NCBI GenBank assembly: GCA_020137815.1
Contig: CM035351.1
Coordinates: 6,882,001-6,946,000, forward strand
Reading direction: 5' to 3'
Length of the DNA stretch: 64,000 bases
DNA from: Hormiphora californensis
Taxonomy: Eukaryota > Animalia > Ctenophora
Below, piece after piece: positions 13,794-42,005 of the stretch. The notes under the pieces were generated by a model. It saw nothing but the letters and a program-made list of their open reading frames with translations, was not told the origin of the DNA and did not search any database. Numbering within the stretch: the stretch's first letter is position 1; each line of letters opens with the position of its first letter. A program made the position numbers and the translations under genes.

Positions 13794-16373
13794 ATGGCTA
13801 TGAAAGTGAAGAAAAACCCATACGATTCAATCAAACCTCCTGAGATGTCTTTCGATGAAGAAGATGGTGAAACACCTATCAAGTAACTATAGGCCTTCAA
13901 AATGGGCCTAGATTGTTTACAAGTTTACAATGTTGACTATGATAAAATATTTGCCAGGAGTTTGCCTCAAACTAAAGATATTTGGGAGTTGTGTATTCAA
14001 GCCACTGAACGGGCAAATCAAGCAGCAGCAAAAAGAAGTGATCAAACAGGTAAACTAGGCTAACAACAATTAGAGTTTTTTTTCATCAAATATCGTTTGT
14101 TGTTCAGGTGCTTCATTTTTGCGTCCATCGCTCATTTTCCCGGGTATGTTTGATGTCGTCTTGTTTGAAGCTGTTTTCTTGACCTTCCTTTTTGTTTATA
14201 GAGTGACTTCTGCACGGCTGTTTTCTGAGTGTTAATTATTTCAGGAGTTGTTGTTGAAAACCAGAACAAGTCATCCGAACGAACAATTTTTGTTGTCGGG
14301 GCAAAATCCTCCGGAAAAACTGGTATCATCCTACGATTTCTTGATAGGTAAGCCGTGAATTTACATCGCTCTGACTGTGGATCTTGTGGATAACTATTTT
14401 TCACCTATCACCAATTTTCCTTGCTCGACCCTGTTTCACCGTGCCCCAGATTAATCAAAACAATCTCCCATCTCTACAGGGACGAACAGCCCAAGGCTAC
14501 AACGGCACTGGAGTACACATTTGGAAGGCGATCACGGAATGACAGTATGAGTAAGGATGTTGCCCATGTCTACGAGTTGGGTGGAGGAGTGGCACTCTCA
14601 AATCTCATAGAGATACCTGTTACTAAGGAGTGTGTCCAGACACTGAACTTTGTTATTGTAGTGGACCTCAGCAAACCAGAAACTATCTGGACTACACTTG
14701 AGTCCCTGCTGGCCGCAATTAGACAGAGGGTGAAGAAGGTTATACACGAACTAAAAGTAGACTCTCCCAGGTAAGATGATAATGGCTGATCGAGTAGATG
14801 TTCTCAACACGTCGTATATTCACACACATCATATATTGACACATCCCCCCAGTGCGGCCAATAACCTAGTCGCGGAATGTCTGGCAAGGTATGATGCTGA
14901 CCATCCTGACAAAGACTCCCTGGATATCATACCAGTGCCCATCACCATCATAGGATCTAAATACGATGTCTTCCAGAACTTTGACAGTGAGAAGAAGAAG
15001 ATAATATCCCGGACATTGAGATATGTGGCACACCATCATGGGGCTCATCTCTGTGTAAGAATTACACATTTCTCTCATCATATATAATCGGGCTAATTGT
15101 TATCTCAAATCACCCAATTTAATGTTATGTTTTCTAATGGTTTTCTCTCTCTCTATTCATCACTAATTGTACTTATCACCCCCTGCCAGTACTTTAGCTC
15201 CAAGATCGAGACGTTGGTTATGCGAGCCAGGGGGTTGTTAGGACATCTCGTGTTCAAGACACAGCTCAACAAGACAACATCAACTGACCACAATAAACCC
15301 ATTTACATGCTGGCTGGTATGGATGCTGTCAGTCAAATCGGATCACCCCCTCCTGCCCCTGGATCTAGGTACAATATACCCCCTCCTGCCCCTGGATCTA
15401 GGTACAATATACCCCCTCCTGCCCCTGGATCTAGGTACAATATACCCCCTCCTGCCCCTGGATCTAGGTACAATATACCCCCTCCTGCCCCTGGATCTAG
15501 GTACAATATACCCCCTCCTGCCACTGGATCTAGGTACAATATACCCCCTCCTGCCCCTGGATCTAGGTACAATATACCCCCTCCTGCCCCTGGATCTAGG
15601 TACAATATACCCCCTCCTGCCCCTGGATCTAGGTACAATATACCCCCTCCTGCCCCTGGATCTAGGTACAATATACCCCCTCCTGCCCCTGGATCTAGGT
15701 ACAATATACCCCCTCCTGCCCCTGGATCTAGGTACAATATACCCCTCCTGCCCCTGGATCTAGGTACAATATACCCCCTCCTGCCCCTGGATCTAGGTAC
15801 AATATACCCCCTCCTGCCCCTGGATCTAGGTACAATATACCCCCTCCTGCCCCTGGATCTAGGTACATCACATGTTATATCACACATAACAATCACACTC
15901 ACATCAATATTTGTTTCTCTCAGCAACCTCTCACACTACCTCTCACACACGCATGGAGGGGACCCATTTGGTACGGACATGGACAGGTAATACACATGTA
16001 TCATCACTAGTTTTCACGTGTATAATAACGGTGCCCACTCCCCTGCAGGTCTCTGTTAGAGCAGTGGAAACAACTGTTCCTGTCATCATTCCCCCAAGAA
16101 TCGGAAGCGGCCATGCCAGATGACCCAACCAAAGATAAGAAGTACAACGAGCCCATAGTGGATTCTGTCCGCGTCCAGAAAGATGAGGTTTGTTTGTTTG
16201 TGGTTGCTGTAAATACACATTACACATCATGTTAGAAAAAACTGTAAACATACGAACGTGATAATGTTGATAACTTGATGTCCTGATTATTTAAAGTCGT
16301 GCTATTTTAGGAGCTGGAACGATTCCGGAAAGCTCAGGAAAGGAAAATGAGACAGAGTGCAGCTCAACAGTAG
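13794..16373 (+). CDS. DYNC2LI1: Cytoplasmic dynein-2 light intermediate chain 1 (retrograde IFT)
   Basis: [10 protein letters not shown]-loop [112 protein letters not shown]. Multi-exon GT-AG. Confidence 0.93.
15346..15866 (+). repeat. 33-bp tandem repeat x16 spanning a DYNC2LI1 exon/intron junction
   Basis: Unit CCCCCTCCTGCCCCTGGATCTAG|GTACAATATA. The first 12 copies are in frame ([11 protein letters not shown]). Confidence 0.97.
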
Positions 16374-16608
16374 CTTCTTGTTTATTTCTGCTGGATCAGA
16401 GATATATAAAAGGAATTCTAACTTCAGATATTTGTGTATAAAGTGTGTTTAGATGAACTCTATACAATTTATTTTAATACAGAGACAGATGTAAATTGTA
16501 TATAATAGCTTATTTATTTTCCTGTGTTAAAACACTCTAATTATGTCAAGTGCCAACTATCTCAAATGAATCTGACCCTGTCTATTCCTATCTAGCTCCC
16601 ATCTAGCC

Positions 16609-39292: not shown

Positions 39293-39571
39293 GTGGTGGA
39301 TCTAGATCTAGCTAGATATGATATTTTAAACCACCAATGAGTAGGAAGGACTGTGAAGTTGGTACTCGGTACATTATTATATTGACACATTTTATAAAAT
39401 TCACGACTTATTTATTTGTTTACAGATTTATTCAACTTATATAAATCATCCACAAATTTCCGTTATTTGTTATTCTCGAAAACTCCCTTCCCCACTTTCA
39501 GATCTCTCAAATGGTTCCATCTCAGCCGATCACACTTCCAATATTCCTAACCCAGCCCCCTCCTTTTAGCA

Positions 39572-42005
39572 ATGGTGAAAGTTGAAGAAACAGTCAGTCC
39601 TCTAAAGCAGAAGACCCTTGATGGGCTGCTGAAGAAGAGTCCTGAGCCTTCTGAGAAATGTCCCGACAAGGCAGTACCGGTGAAGAGAGAGCCCCTGCAG
39701 ACCACAACCCAGAAACAGGAGGTGAAGAAGGAAGGGAAACCGACCAGGAATCAGCCTACAAAGGAGAAAAAGCAGGCCAAGGAAAATAAATCATCAACAA
39801 AAGGTAACAACGTGTTTTGTAACTAATATTTAGGTTACTATACTGGTACAGTCGGACCCCGATTTAGTGGCCCCCGATTTAGTGGTACCCCGATTTAGTG
39901 GCAGGATTTTTTCCCCGCGATATAGGAAATTAACATTATTTGAACCCGATTTAGTGGCACCCCGATTTAGTGGCAGGATTTTTTCCCCGAGGATGCCACT
40001 AAATCGGGGTCCGACTGTATATGATTATTGATTCTTGGATTAAAATTCCTCAGGTACTGCAGTAAAGAAAACAGAGAAGACCCGGCCAAAGAGACAGATA
40101 AAAGCAGCTACCGAGGAAAAAGATGACTTCAGGTACTAATTTTGTGAGTAATTAGTAGAAAATGTGCCGGTGAGTTTTCCAAATTAGCCCCAAATATCAG
40201 TTTAAAGAGAGTCTGGGGATCGCAGTAAATCACTGGGTGAGAGTGTAAAACACTGATTACTCAGAGCATATCTCATGTTTCACATTCTCCTACTGTTGTT
40301 GTTTGTGATGTAAATGTCTTGTAGCAGAGGATCACTTGAATGATCTCCGGTTTGGCCACTTCTATCTTTCTGTCTACCCAACTGAAAGGAACTGTCAACC
40401 TGTTAAAGTAAGAGTGGCGCGCCGTGTTTTCTCACAAAACTTAGTGGATGAACGGGGAGTACCACCAGGACCATTGGTACGGTATCGAAAATTTCCAATT
40501 CTGTCTCGTTCATTAGTTATGACGTAATATGTTCATTATTTCAACTTTCATAAAATTGCTCTACAGAAATATCTGTGCATTGTGGATTGAAATGGATGCT
40601 CGCATCGTGTTCAGCGTCAAAAAATAGTCGGGGTACCAAATTTTGGTGTCTCTACCTTGTCTGTGACGCGAGATATCGACAATTATCAAAAACGACCAAA
40701 ATGGGTGAGAGAGAGATTGTTACTTTTGGGTGCTAGTTGTTTGTGCGCGCCACCCAAAAGTAACAAACTCTCTTTCTCTCACTTTGGTCGTTTTTTCATA
40801 TTTGTCAATATCTCGCGTCACAGACAAGGTAGAGACACCAAAATTAGGTACCCCGACTATTTTTTGACGCTGAACACGATGCAAGCATCCATTTCAATCC
40901 ACAATGCACAGATTTTTCTGTAGAGCAATTTTATGAAAGTTGAAATAATGAACATATTACGTCATAACTAATGAACGAGACAGAATTGGAAATTTTCGAT
41001 ACCATACCAATGGTCCTGGTGGTACTCCCCGTTCATCCACTAAGTTTTGTGAGAAAACACGGCGCGCCACTCTTACTTTAACCGTAGCAACAACACGTTC
41101 ACTCATGGGTCTAATAATAAGTGGCTTCGATCGGTCAGGTGTGTTAGCAAGGAAGGTTATTATTGGGGATTGACCATCGTGTACATTGTATAACGTCTCT
41201 CTTCCCAGGAAGTTGTCTGATTTCTACCCGGTCCGGAGAAGTAAACGTCAGCCCATTTCCAAACTAAAAGATCAAGAAACCCAACAGTTGAGGGAGAAGA
41301 TTGAGAACAAATGTCATGAGGGTCTAGAGGTAACTATAATATCACAGTGTACCAATGTGATAGAAGTGTGGCTCTTTCAATTTACTGTTTTTTTAGTCAT
41401 TAGTAGTTCACTAGTCGTTACAAATGAGGCCCACAGTCTGTACCCCAAATTAACCTCCCTATCTTCACCGCAGATCCGGGAGATACCCGGAAAAGGAAGG
41501 GGTGTCTTCTCAAACAGACACTTCAATAGAAAAGAGTTTGTAGTTGAATACTCTGGGACCCTGATCTCATTCGAGGAAGCAAAACGGAGGGAAGCGGAAT
41601 ATGCTGAGCACCCTGATAAGTTTGGGTGTTACATGTACTACTTTTCATTCAAGAATAAAAAATACTGGTGAGTTCCATTTTTCACATCTTTCTCTCTCTC
41701 TCTCTCTCTCTCTTCATATCATATATACCCTTTGAAGAGGGCCCCCAGTCCCCACCAACCAGTACTTAACACCCCCTCCCTCCTCCTTGCAGTGTGGACG
41801 GTACGGCGGAGGACTGGCAGCTATGGTCGGCTTCTTGAACCACTCAGTAAATGGTAACGTGGAGACCAAGTTGGTGGATGTTAACAGTAAACCAGTGCTA
41901 ATTCTCATTGCTAAAACTGATATCCCACCTGATACTGAACTATGTTATGATTATGGGGAGAGAAGTAAGGATATTATTGATTCACATCCATGGCTAACCA
42001 GCTAA
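39572..42005 (+). CDS. KMT5A: H4K20 monomethyltransferase SETD8/PR-Set7 (apparent frameshift errors in the last exon)
   Basis: KLSDFYPVRRSKR (PIP-degron-like), GKGRGVF, EFVVEYSG, GCYMYYF, NHSVNGN, ELCYDYGERSKDIIDSHPWL. Confidence 0.93.
39849..40017. mobile_element. Tc1/mariner-pogo-type MITE, TA TSD
   Basis: TA-CAGTCGGACCCCGATTTAGTGG...CCACTAAATCGGGGTCCGACTG-TA with internal CCCGATTTAGTGG repeats. Confidence 0.9.
40407..41077. mobile_element. 671-bp palindromic MITE, TTAA TSD, AG...CT ends (Kolobok-like)
   Basis: TTAA-AGTAAGAGTGGCGCGCC...GGCGCGCCACTCTTACT-TTAA. Full-length arms, centre ~40742. Confidence 0.9.

Follow-up and report, generated by a model that had tools for sequence, protein, structure and literature searches.

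A cluster of 11 housekeeping genes in the ctenophore Hormiphora californensis includes two, PET117 and NOM1, whose open reading frames (ORFs) lie together on one cis-spliced mRNA, both in this species and in a close relative. On balance we lean towards reading the cluster as two or more operons resolved by spliced leader (SL) trans-splicing, with the PET117-NOM1 mRNA carrying an upstream ORF (uORF) that would let ribosomes bypass PET117 and reinitiate at NOM1. It is likely that one promoter serves several genes of the cluster.

Organization of the gene cluster

ORF and frame analysis of the window (the whole stretch of 64,000 nucleotides that was analysed) places 12 plus-strand ORFs within 28.2 kb, at positions 13794-42005. 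Pfam backs the gene names for all 12 (DLIC, ACBP plus ECH, ACBP, PET117, MIF4G/MA3, INO80E, VKOR, ANAPC5, Translin, L21p, PolyA_pol and SET), although scanning exons singly left the DLIC, PET117 and SET matches partly under or close to the curated cut-off; an Rfam search of the window gave no match. The stop-to-ATG gaps were recomputed as 235, 176, 217, -23, 367, 267, 340, 384, 80, 204 and 279 nt, and all 11 agree with those of an earlier note on this DNA. That note had described 12 consecutive genes; the co-orientation stands, while strict consecutiveness does not, given an antisense ORF inside ANAPC5 intron 3. The third gene is a partial copy of ECI2. The cluster shows the co-orientation and short intercistronic distances of an SL-resolved operon: the 11 gaps range from -23 to 384 nt, with one nested antisense gene.

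The candidate first gene is DYNC2LI1 (dynein-2 light intermediate chain, 13794..16373; GT-AG model with an open frame, Pfam DLIC), for which the acceptor AG ends at 13783. ECI2 (16609..20511), combining ACBP and enoyl-CoA isomerase, is supported by its model, Pfam and RNA contigs, which confirm three introns in all four runs and a fourth in three of them; its SL acceptor AG ends at 16606, and its RNA contigs extend to at least 20571 (run X4), about 115 nt or less short of the next AG. What had been taken for an independent third gene proved to be an incomplete tandem copy of ECI2 exon 1, covering the targeting peptide and the ACBP domain (20688..21011, 107 aa, 98% identity over 300 nt), showing 6 differences in 321 nt, 4 of them silent, and including a copy of the acceptor. 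RNA contigs that match the duplicate region run on into ECI2 proper. With the duplicate discounted, the cluster consists of 11 housekeeping genes.

Beyond PET117 and NOM1, which are treated below, lie an INO80E-like gene with a long low-complexity tail (24204..27774; model, Pfam INO80E, acceptor ending at 24202) and VKORC1 (28042..28806; model, Pfam VKOR, acceptor ending at 28039). ANAPC5 (29147..33790; Pfam, frames, homologues P0178 and P0180) is broken in frame within its 3' part, around 33150-33600, in the present assembly. Its intron 3 holds a nested antisense gene of five exons on the minus strand (30568..32138; open GT-AG model, 245-247 aa), the ORF of which has a hydrophobic N-terminus and two repeats that we take to resemble PLAT, with no significant Pfam match when the exons were scanned singly. 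The remaining genes are the single-exon TSNAX (34175..34861; Pfam Translin, acceptor ending at 34172), MRPL21, which starts 80 nt past the TSNAX stop (34942..35733; model, Pfam L21p, acceptor ending at 34932), TRNT1 (35938..39292; Pfam, acceptor ending at 35926) and SETD8 (39572..42005; Pfam SET, acceptor ending at 39569), the last exon of which has frame breaks in the present assembly. The TRNT1 ATG first quoted, at 35938, had to be given up: in this assembly it meets a stop after seven codons and is out of the gene frame, and the next in-frame ATG is at 36032.

Acceptor signals and the spliced leader

An AG with a pyrimidine tract had been claimed ahead of the ATGs, and this is borne out. 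The acceptor matrix was derived from 31 cis introns in the cluster, and 199 non-coding ATGs served as decoys; the mean best score within 40 nt of the 11 non-duplicate starts was 3.2, compared with -5.6 +/- 2.1 for decoy sets, and none of 100,000 resamples of non-coding ATG sets attained the score of the 11 starts. A YAG lies no more than 12 nt before the ATG at 9 of the 11 starts as against 40% of the decoys (p=0.006), and the pyrimidine fraction ahead of the AG is 0.72 at the starts, 0.70 at cis acceptors and 0.50 at decoys. Taken singly, 4 of the 11 start acceptors exceed the 95th percentile of decoy AGs; 55% of the 31 true acceptors do. The CTAA branch-like motifs reported for the spacers are there in part (CTAAY in 4 of 12, YTRAY in 7 of 12). 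AATAAA is indeed missing from all 10 spacers, but composition predicts as much (P(0)=0.35), and its absence was dropped as operon evidence.

Ctenophore SL trans-splicing is said to have been described by Derelle et al. in 2010. Our RNA evidence consists of contigs from four low-depth runs compared with positions 19400-25700, found by a run search in which the word shares were small (0.06-0.13 in 10 of 11 runs). At the ECI2 acceptor, run X7 has a loose end of 21 nt followed by the AG, on a contig continuing into ECI2 proper, and together these are identical to the final 23 nt of the leader that PMC8527503 prints for Hormiphora. Joining of the SL at one of the AGs picked out beforehand is thus seen for ECI2 in a close relative about 92% identical, that is, at one of 12 starts with RNA covering 19400-25700; together with the SL-like leader that a distant ctenophore has ahead of PET117, it agrees with the premise that ctenophores add an SL to downstream genes. 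According to PMC8527503, the SL is present on at least 56% of long reads from Hormiphora, which would mean that monocistronic genes receive it as well; an SL on a gene is therefore no proof by itself of polycistronic transcription. INO80E exons had no contig cover in the four runs while NOM1 had some, a contrast drawn at too shallow a depth to use. A short SL-end motif has three matches in the window, all of them outside the cluster.

The PET117-NOM1 mRNA

PET117 (21229..21528, 68 aa; exons 21229-21412 and 21506-21528, intron 21413-21505; Pfam PET117, E 2.7e-5) has its best acceptor AG ending at 21192, and its stop overlaps by 23 nt the single-exon NOM1 (21506..23836, 776 aa; Pfam MIF4G/MA3 and homologues), which forms the second cistron of the mRNA. 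The joint across 21413-21505, a 93-nt GT-AG skip, is present in runs X1 and X7, the sole two of the four that cover the site; record 15 of X7 covers PET117 plus NOM1, and the protein P0122 ends as the spliced form of PET117 does. The SL is joined at ECI2 in a close relative; the view that no exon precedes the AGs fails at NOM1, and the TSNAX spacer holds strong donors. For NOM1 the counter-evidence named beforehand is found, in that a cis exon upstream is spliced to its AG, although this exon encodes PET117 and is no small 5' UTR exon.

The same arrangement is found in L001, a sequence from a very distant ctenophore. It has a 30-nt leader ending TAATTGAG, called SL-like from its end motif and position alone, with a uATG at 33, PET117 at 38 and NOM1 at 243; its PET117 is 46% identical and the relative frames of its ORFs are as in the window. 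In a NOM1 tree (16 rows, midpoint root, P0014 and P0025 left out as lacking the anchor motif, no cnidarian or sponge named) L001 branches sister to the other ctenophore NOM1s, with 100/100 for the group. In the spliced contigs of X1 and X7 and in L001, a single mature mRNA bears both complete ORFs, in the manner of KSHV ORF35/36. The protein search yielded a single protein cluster for PET117, and 1 of 280 pattern matches of a metagenome scan was confirmed.

Ahead of PET117 the sequence holds a uORF of 10 codons in the NOM1 frame that overlaps the PET117 ATG (21206..21238, plus strand); the uORF of L001 has 9 codons and likewise overlaps the PET117 start. Among the 12 starts, PET117 alone has a uATG after its best acceptor. 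PET117 lacks an internal ATG in both DNA sequences (window and L001), for which the chance by codon resampling is about 0.012 and 0.002, and 11 of 137 comparable coding windows are ATG-free; a short uORF over the first start with few ATGs ahead of the second ORF is therefore common to both. The translation model drawn from these two sequences is that ribosomes leaking past a weak uATG would make PET117, and that those taking the uATG would stop 10 codons on, beyond the PET117 start, then cross an ATG-less stretch of about 175 nt by scanning and reinitiate at NOM1. NOM1 was called full length from all 10 long ENA contigs and the other genes were exon-sized, which suggests that NOM1 is probably intronless across ctenophores, and without an intron in NOM1 the early PET117 stop would have no downstream exon junction to trigger decay. 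An in-frame NOM1 Met lies 4-12 codons upstream in 5 of 9 short contigs, from two other lineages, so the ATG-free leader may fail there.

The NOM1 AG (21504-21505) serves as a cis acceptor and may serve as a trans acceptor too. A doubtful but still credible alternative to uORF bypass is that its cis use gives a PET117 mRNA with a silent NOM1 tail, its trans use gives an SL-NOM1 mRNA that accounts for all NOM1 protein, and the uORF just damps PET117. With a score of 10.2 this AG outranks the acceptors of the other 11 starts, and it stands directly before the ATG; protein P0001 ends like unspliced PET117, with its stop just past the donor, so a separate PET117 mRNA may exist. Although contigs drop minor forms, no SL loose end at 21505 is among the 21 of 43 loose ends listed for the four runs; both contigs covering the NOM1 start, and L001, begin in PET117, and such dual use leaves the ATG-free PET117 frame of both lineages unexplained.

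Linkage in other ctenophores

Linkage appears to be conserved, as judged from accession order and equal-sized contigs, for DYNC2LI1-NOM1 in three assemblies and for NOM1-ANAPC5 in one. In Mnemiopsis, DYNC2LI1 is ACHWQZ_G012407 and NOM1 is G012411, with three tags in between as in the window; in Bolinopsis the pair is XP_063694768-771 and XP_063694777; within each pair the contig is of identical size. The DYNC2LI1 exon used for comparison matches the P. bachei model at 99% and those of Mnemiopsis and Bolinopsis at 75-76%. An ENA contig size of 158,115 nt is common to DYNC2LI1 and NOM1, and one of 24,199 nt to ANAPC5 and a 61%-identical NOM1. None of the four TRNT1 contigs matches a NOM1 contig in size, and mixed-profile searches returned neither a TSNAX nor a TRNT1 named as such for Mnemiopsis or Bolinopsis. 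From these matches we infer that linkage of DYNC2LI1 to NOM1, or of NOM1 to ANAPC5, probably holds in four other ctenophore assemblies.

Promoters and transcription units

In the operon reading that we favour, a promoter upstream of DYNC2LI1 would drive the left block, a 3' end would form in each short U-rich spacer with the SL then added at the next AG, and a second promoter in the spacer ahead of ANAPC5 would start or boost the right block. This spacer (28807..29146, plus strand; best acceptor ending at 29130) holds 19 CpG within its 340 nt (o/e 1.10) and ranks in the top 6% of windows, the other inner spacers of the cluster having 0-9 CpG, and it contains matches that we take to be E2F-like and E-box, which suggests a second, internal promoter. 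The one or two long polycistronic units of the earlier note survive in part: short, promoter-poor left spacers and the apparent linkage favour operons, and two or more units are more probable than one unit of 12 genes because the spacer before ANAPC5 is CpG-rich.

It is rather improbable that each gene has a compact promoter of its own, in the spacer or in the end of the upstream gene, with the SL replacing a short outron and the cluster being dense but monocistronic except for PET117-NOM1. SL addition is pervasive in ctenophores (PMC8527503), some spacers are as long as 340-384 nt and one is promoter-like, and no unspliced precursor bridging a spacer is among the contigs listed for 19400-25700 in the four low-depth sets; but the 80-nt TSNAX-MRPL21 gap and the left-hand spacers of 176-235 nt, with 0-2 CpG, must fit a 3' UTR too, the ECI2 duplicate copied its acceptor with less than about 65 nt of DNA upstream, and unrelated genes are apparently linked still in distant ctenophores. 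Quite unlikely is one 28-kb polycistronic unit from DYNC2LI1 to SETD8 with one promoter. It would suit gaps that are all 384 nt or less, an acceptor-like AG at every start and the seeming presence of NOM1 and ANAPC5 on one 24-kb contig in a distant lineage, but not the CpG-rich, promoter-like spacer before ANAPC5, and the longest chaetognath operon in the available text of PMC12460157 has nine genes. That the AGs are ordinary cis acceptors of small non-coding first exons, with the SL uninvolved, is hardly credible. In its favour, it holds for NOM1, the ANAPC5-TSNAX spacer has two strong donors (scores 8.8 and 8.4, at 33889 and 33971) and spacer donors of 4.4-5.9 score like the weaker true donors (10th percentile 3.8), which makes small cis exons possible by sequence; against it, the SL is joined at ECI2, the best donors in 9 of the 12 upstream regions are at decoy level (5.9 or less; decoy median 5.6) and gaps of 80-235 nt would be tight for a UTR, a promoter and an exon together with an intron, for which 62 nt is the minimum.

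Comparison with known systems

In the 'alternative operons' of C. elegans a single 3' splice site is used for cis- and trans-splicing. There, as in PET117-NOM1, one AG is the upstream gene's last acceptor and the downstream gene's start; PET117-NOM1 differs in that both ORFs are complete, in different frames, on the cis-spliced mRNA, and in that the trans use of the AG is hypothetical.

The SL-resolved operons of C. elegans, Ciona and Oikopleura (PMC7986045), Paraspadella (PMC12460157) and Hydra RFC140-flp (PMC3273482) are like the cluster in their co-oriented, unrelated housekeeping genes, gaps of at most a few hundred nt, U-rich spacer, pyrimidine tract and AG before the ATG and SL on a downstream gene. 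The cluster has 11 genes against the nine of the longest chaetognath operon (PMC12460157), and it differs in having one junction cis-spliced into a mature two-ORF mRNA. Transcription from a single promoter, which we infer for the cluster, is proven for Hydra RFC140-flp, where the spacer was tested with reporters for downstream expression versus driving alone (PMC3273482). The available text of a 2021 paper has operons unreported in ctenophores (PMC7986045). The Hormiphora californensis genome paper (PMC8527503) gives the same leader end as found here and nested intronic genes as frequent in these genomes; its main text has no occurrence of 'operon' or 'polycistronic', and its available sections describe no bicistronic mRNA. 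Among the papers listed by our literature searches, titles and abstract openings contained no ctenophore operon or PET117-NOM1 mRNA; clusters resembling operons may already be mentioned in Derelle 2010 or the Pleurobrachia genome paper, and the supplements of PMC8527503 may bear on novelty.

The closest likeness in translation is to KSHV ORF35-ORF36 (PMC3561293), where the uORF has 11 codons as against 9-10 in the two ctenophore sequences; in both, the uORF overlaps the first gene's start and the main ORFs overlap, and scanning before reinitiation covers 332 nt in KSHV and a proposed 175-180 nt or so in PET117-NOM1. The KSHV mRNA is viral and experimentally proven, whereas PET117-NOM1 is cellular, a product of cis-splicing with a probable spliced-leader cap, and its bypass is predicted. 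The hepatitis B C0 uORF is an earlier case named in PMC3561293.

Significance

Our wider proposal is tentative: ctenophores may have long SL-resolved operons kept phylum-wide, one of which would hold an SL-capped mRNA from which a herpesvirus-like uORF bypass yields both PET117 and NOM1, an arrangement retained since early ctenophore evolution. Ctenophores are among the candidates for the sister lineage of all other animals; PET117 is a mitochondrial complex IV assembly factor and NOM1 a ribosome-biogenesis factor. For annotation there is a warning in that a 68-aa first cistron is readily missed, and the NOM1 models of Mnemiopsis and P. bachei (581 and 575 aa) are 5'-truncated. Ctenophore operons, if true, would mean a further independent origin of operons, or a deeper one, and would allow the proposed role of SL splicing in growth and housekeeping control to be tested. 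If the bypass is true, PET117-NOM1 would give a conserved cellular example of a way of translating for which the proof to date is mostly viral, and would couple mitochondrial assembly with ribosome making.

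Gene content of the cluster

The cluster of co-oriented genes on the forward strand (13794..42005) is a real feature of the window. Pfam backs all twelve gene names, and the eleven stop-to-ATG gaps listed in the earlier note are exact. The third ORF belongs to a duplicate (20665-21011) that copies ECI2 exon 1, including its acceptor, with 98% identity, which leaves eleven distinct genes and not twelve. The spacers do lack AATAAA, as had been noticed by eye, yet this absence carries no signal since base composition predicts it (P=0.35). With hand-built GT-AG models, the frames are open in DYNC2LI1, ECI2, the ACBP-only ORF, PET117, NOM1, INO80E, VKORC1, TSNAX and MRPL21, and in TRNT1 from just after the first ATG. 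Clustered frame breaks are found at the 3' end of ANAPC5 (33150-33600), the first ATG of TRNT1 (35938-35950) and the last exon of SETD8 (41793-41850); because these genes are essential and the breaks local, they are probably assembly errors. ORFs of 2.3-2.6 kb near the breaks are clean. The NOM1 protein is 98% identical to the Pleurobrachia bachei EukProt model, 75% to Mnemiopsis leidyi and at most 41% outside that group, which identifies the DNA as that of a Pleurobrachia-type ctenophore.

An antisense ORF of five exons (245-247 aa) is nested in ANAPC5 intron 3, and nested genes are described as common in Hormiphora (PMC8527503). A 63-nt DYNC2LI1 exon (15924-15986), missing in the P. bachei model and with a counterpart in Bolinopsis isoform X2, is by sequence comparison a conserved alternative exon. 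INO80E intron 3 (24700-25400) is covered by RNA contigs in three of four runs while the exons are uncovered; candidate sources of this signal are repeats and a small antisense transcript nested in the intron.

Splice acceptors and spliced-leader addition

Starts were scored with an acceptor matrix built from 31 cis introns and compared with decoy sets drawn from 199 non-coding ATGs. The mean score at the 11 non-duplicate starts was 3.2 versus -5.6 +/- 2.1 in the decoy sets (0/100,000 resamples), and a YAG lies within 12 nt at 9 of the 11 versus 40% (p=0.006). The pyrimidine content in front of the AG is like that of true acceptors, 0.72 against 0.70, with 0.50 at decoys. Upstream donors score at most 5.9, the decoy level, in 9 of 12 starts, which is weak evidence as the 10th percentile of true donors is 3.8. 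Higher scores precede NOM1 (7.6), TSNAX (8.8 and 8.4) and DYNC2LI1, in the last case at a site 495 nt upstream (7.5). Between ANAPC5 and TSNAX (33770-34175, forward strand), a consensus GTGAGT donor contains the ANAPC5 stop, with an acceptor-like AG downstream at 33863, and strong donors at 33889 and 33971 lie upstream of the intronless TSNAX; this arrangement could mean that ANAPC5 and TSNAX are another pair joined in cis, or that TSNAX has a non-coding exon.

RNA contigs of four runs were compared with positions 19400-25700 of the window. In run X7, from a relative about 92% identical to the window, a contig reaching into ECI2 proper carries 21 unmatched nt at the ECI2-type acceptor; together with the AG, they reproduce the final 23 nt of the Hormiphora leader. 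As the second gene, ECI2 starts 235 nt past the DYNC2LI1 stop, and the spacer between them has no CpG. In this relative, a downstream gene thus receives the spliced leader (SL) by trans-splicing at one of the AGs singled out in the earlier note. Because 56% or more of the long reads from Hormiphora carry the leader (PMC8527503), its presence at ECI2 is not proof of a shared promoter. No precursor crossing a spacer was seen among the matches listed for these four runs and this interval.

The PET117-NOM1 mRNA

The firmest new result is a conserved mRNA carrying both PET117 and NOM1. Contigs of two RNA runs, X1 (each piece with at most one mismatch) and X7, splice out 21413-21505 (GT-AG) and connect the PET117 exon with the AG preceding the NOM1 ATG. 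This acceptor, previously described as having no obvious upstream exon, is therefore used in cis. In X7, PET117 is found together with 870 nt of NOM1 on a single contig of 1,109 nt (record 15). Spliced PET117 is 68 aa long, and its stop lies 23 nt within NOM1 in a different frame. Among PET117-type proteins, P0122 (from a Logan contig) shares this C-terminal end and P0001 ends like the unspliced form, whose stop falls just beyond the donor.

Scanning of JGI contigs with the ctenophore NOM1 alignment gave 280 pattern matches, one of which was confirmed. This contig, L001, is from a very distant ctenophore; its NOM1 core shares 62-67% identity with the remaining ctenophore rows and is sister to them in the tree (group support 100/100). 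It begins with 30 nt ending TAATTGAG, which we infer from the end motif and position to be an SL, followed by a 9-codon upstream ORF (uORF, ATG at 33), PET117 (ATG at 38; 46% identity over 50 aa; Pfam E 3e-4) and an overlapping NOM1 (ATG at 243).

In both the window and L001, the uORF shares the frame of NOM1, spans the PET117 ATG and stops beyond it; among the 12 starts of the cluster, only PET117 has such an upstream ATG. Past the uORF, all three frames of PET117 are free of ATG over 180-200 nt, with chance probabilities of about 0.012 and 0.002 (codon resampling times Met frequency) for two sequences that are homologous and not fully independent; judged by comparable coding windows, the chance is 11 of 137. 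Ribosomes using the uORF would pass the PET117 start and then reinitiate at NOM1. NOM1 is one exon in the window, and all 10 of the long ENA contigs gave a full-length call. Decay of an mRNA with an early stop depends on a downstream exon junction, and a one-exon NOM1 would shield the bicistronic mRNA from it. The same layout is found in KSHV ORF35/36, where an 11-codon uORF takes ribosomes beyond the first start and reinitiation occurs 332 nt on (PMC3561293). Overlapping uORFs usually only repress the ORF that they overlap, according to a review (PMC10275272).

A serious rival is that the SL is joined directly at the NOM1 AG, the acceptor that X1 and X7 join to PET117. Two other lineages speak against generality of the translation model: of their 9 short contigs, 5 have an in-frame Met 4-12 codons upstream of the NOM1 start. 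The 'FQ' in these contigs, known from protein, could be a retained acceptor. Taking SL-resolved operons together with a PET117-NOM1 mRNA on which ribosomes bypass PET117, we consider the combined reading slightly favoured.

Number of transcription units

The cluster behaves like an SL-resolved operon and is probably one, or several; some polycistronic transcription within it is likely. One or two units had been proposed; we read two or more, and a single unit is not favoured, because the VKORC1-ANAPC5 spacer, with 19 CpG over its 340 nt (o/e of 1.10, within the top 6% of windows) against 0-9 in the other inner spacers, is a candidate internal promoter. It also has matches to what we take to be E2F-like and E-box consensus sites.

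CpG-rich stretches lie on either side of the cluster (42100-42450 and 11900-12500), and the latter may act as the promoter of the left block, though it overlaps palindromic repeats. Near-perfect palindromic MITE-like elements occupy introns and the region upstream of the cluster (36910-37854, 40402-41082, 12996-13483 and 12300-12597). A talin-like multi-exon gene, recognized by eye (about 55480-64000, forward strand), extends beyond the window end and is preceded by spacers of several kb, in contrast to the short ones inside the cluster.

Conservation and relation to known operons

Accession or locus-tag order and contigs of equal size suggest that linkage is kept in other ctenophores. DYNC2LI1 and NOM1 are G012407 (KAL5257452-454) and G012411 (KAL5257458) in Mnemiopsis, and XP_063694768-771 and XP_063694777 in Bolinopsis, with equal contig sizes in each. 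In ENA, a DYNC2LI1 piece and a NOM1 have a common contig size of 158,115, and a second size, 24,199, recurs for an ANAPC5 piece and a NOM1 from a lineage with 61% identity to the window; none of four TRNT1 contig sizes equals any of 18 NOM1 sizes.

SL splicing in ctenophores was already known (PMC8527503); they figure among trans-splicing taxa in a 2025 paper (PMC12460157) which gives nine genes for the longest chaetognath operon, and Pleurobrachia is merely listed for SL in PMC4824033. Hydra has a proven operon (PMC3273482); for ctenophores, PMC7986045 described operons as not yet reported in 2021. Our literature search, with partial texts and with Derelle 2010, the Pleurobrachia genome paper and the Hormiphora supplements outside its coverage, found neither operons of ctenophores nor a PET117-NOM1 mRNA described.

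The partial ECI2 duplicate has six differences from ECI2, four of them silent, and appears young; its product would be an ACBP protein that is free and targeted to mitochondria. RNA contigs placed on it run on into ECI2 proper, so that expression of the copy itself stays putative. The acceptor was duplicated together with ECI2 exon 1, a possible route by which new genes may enter an operon.
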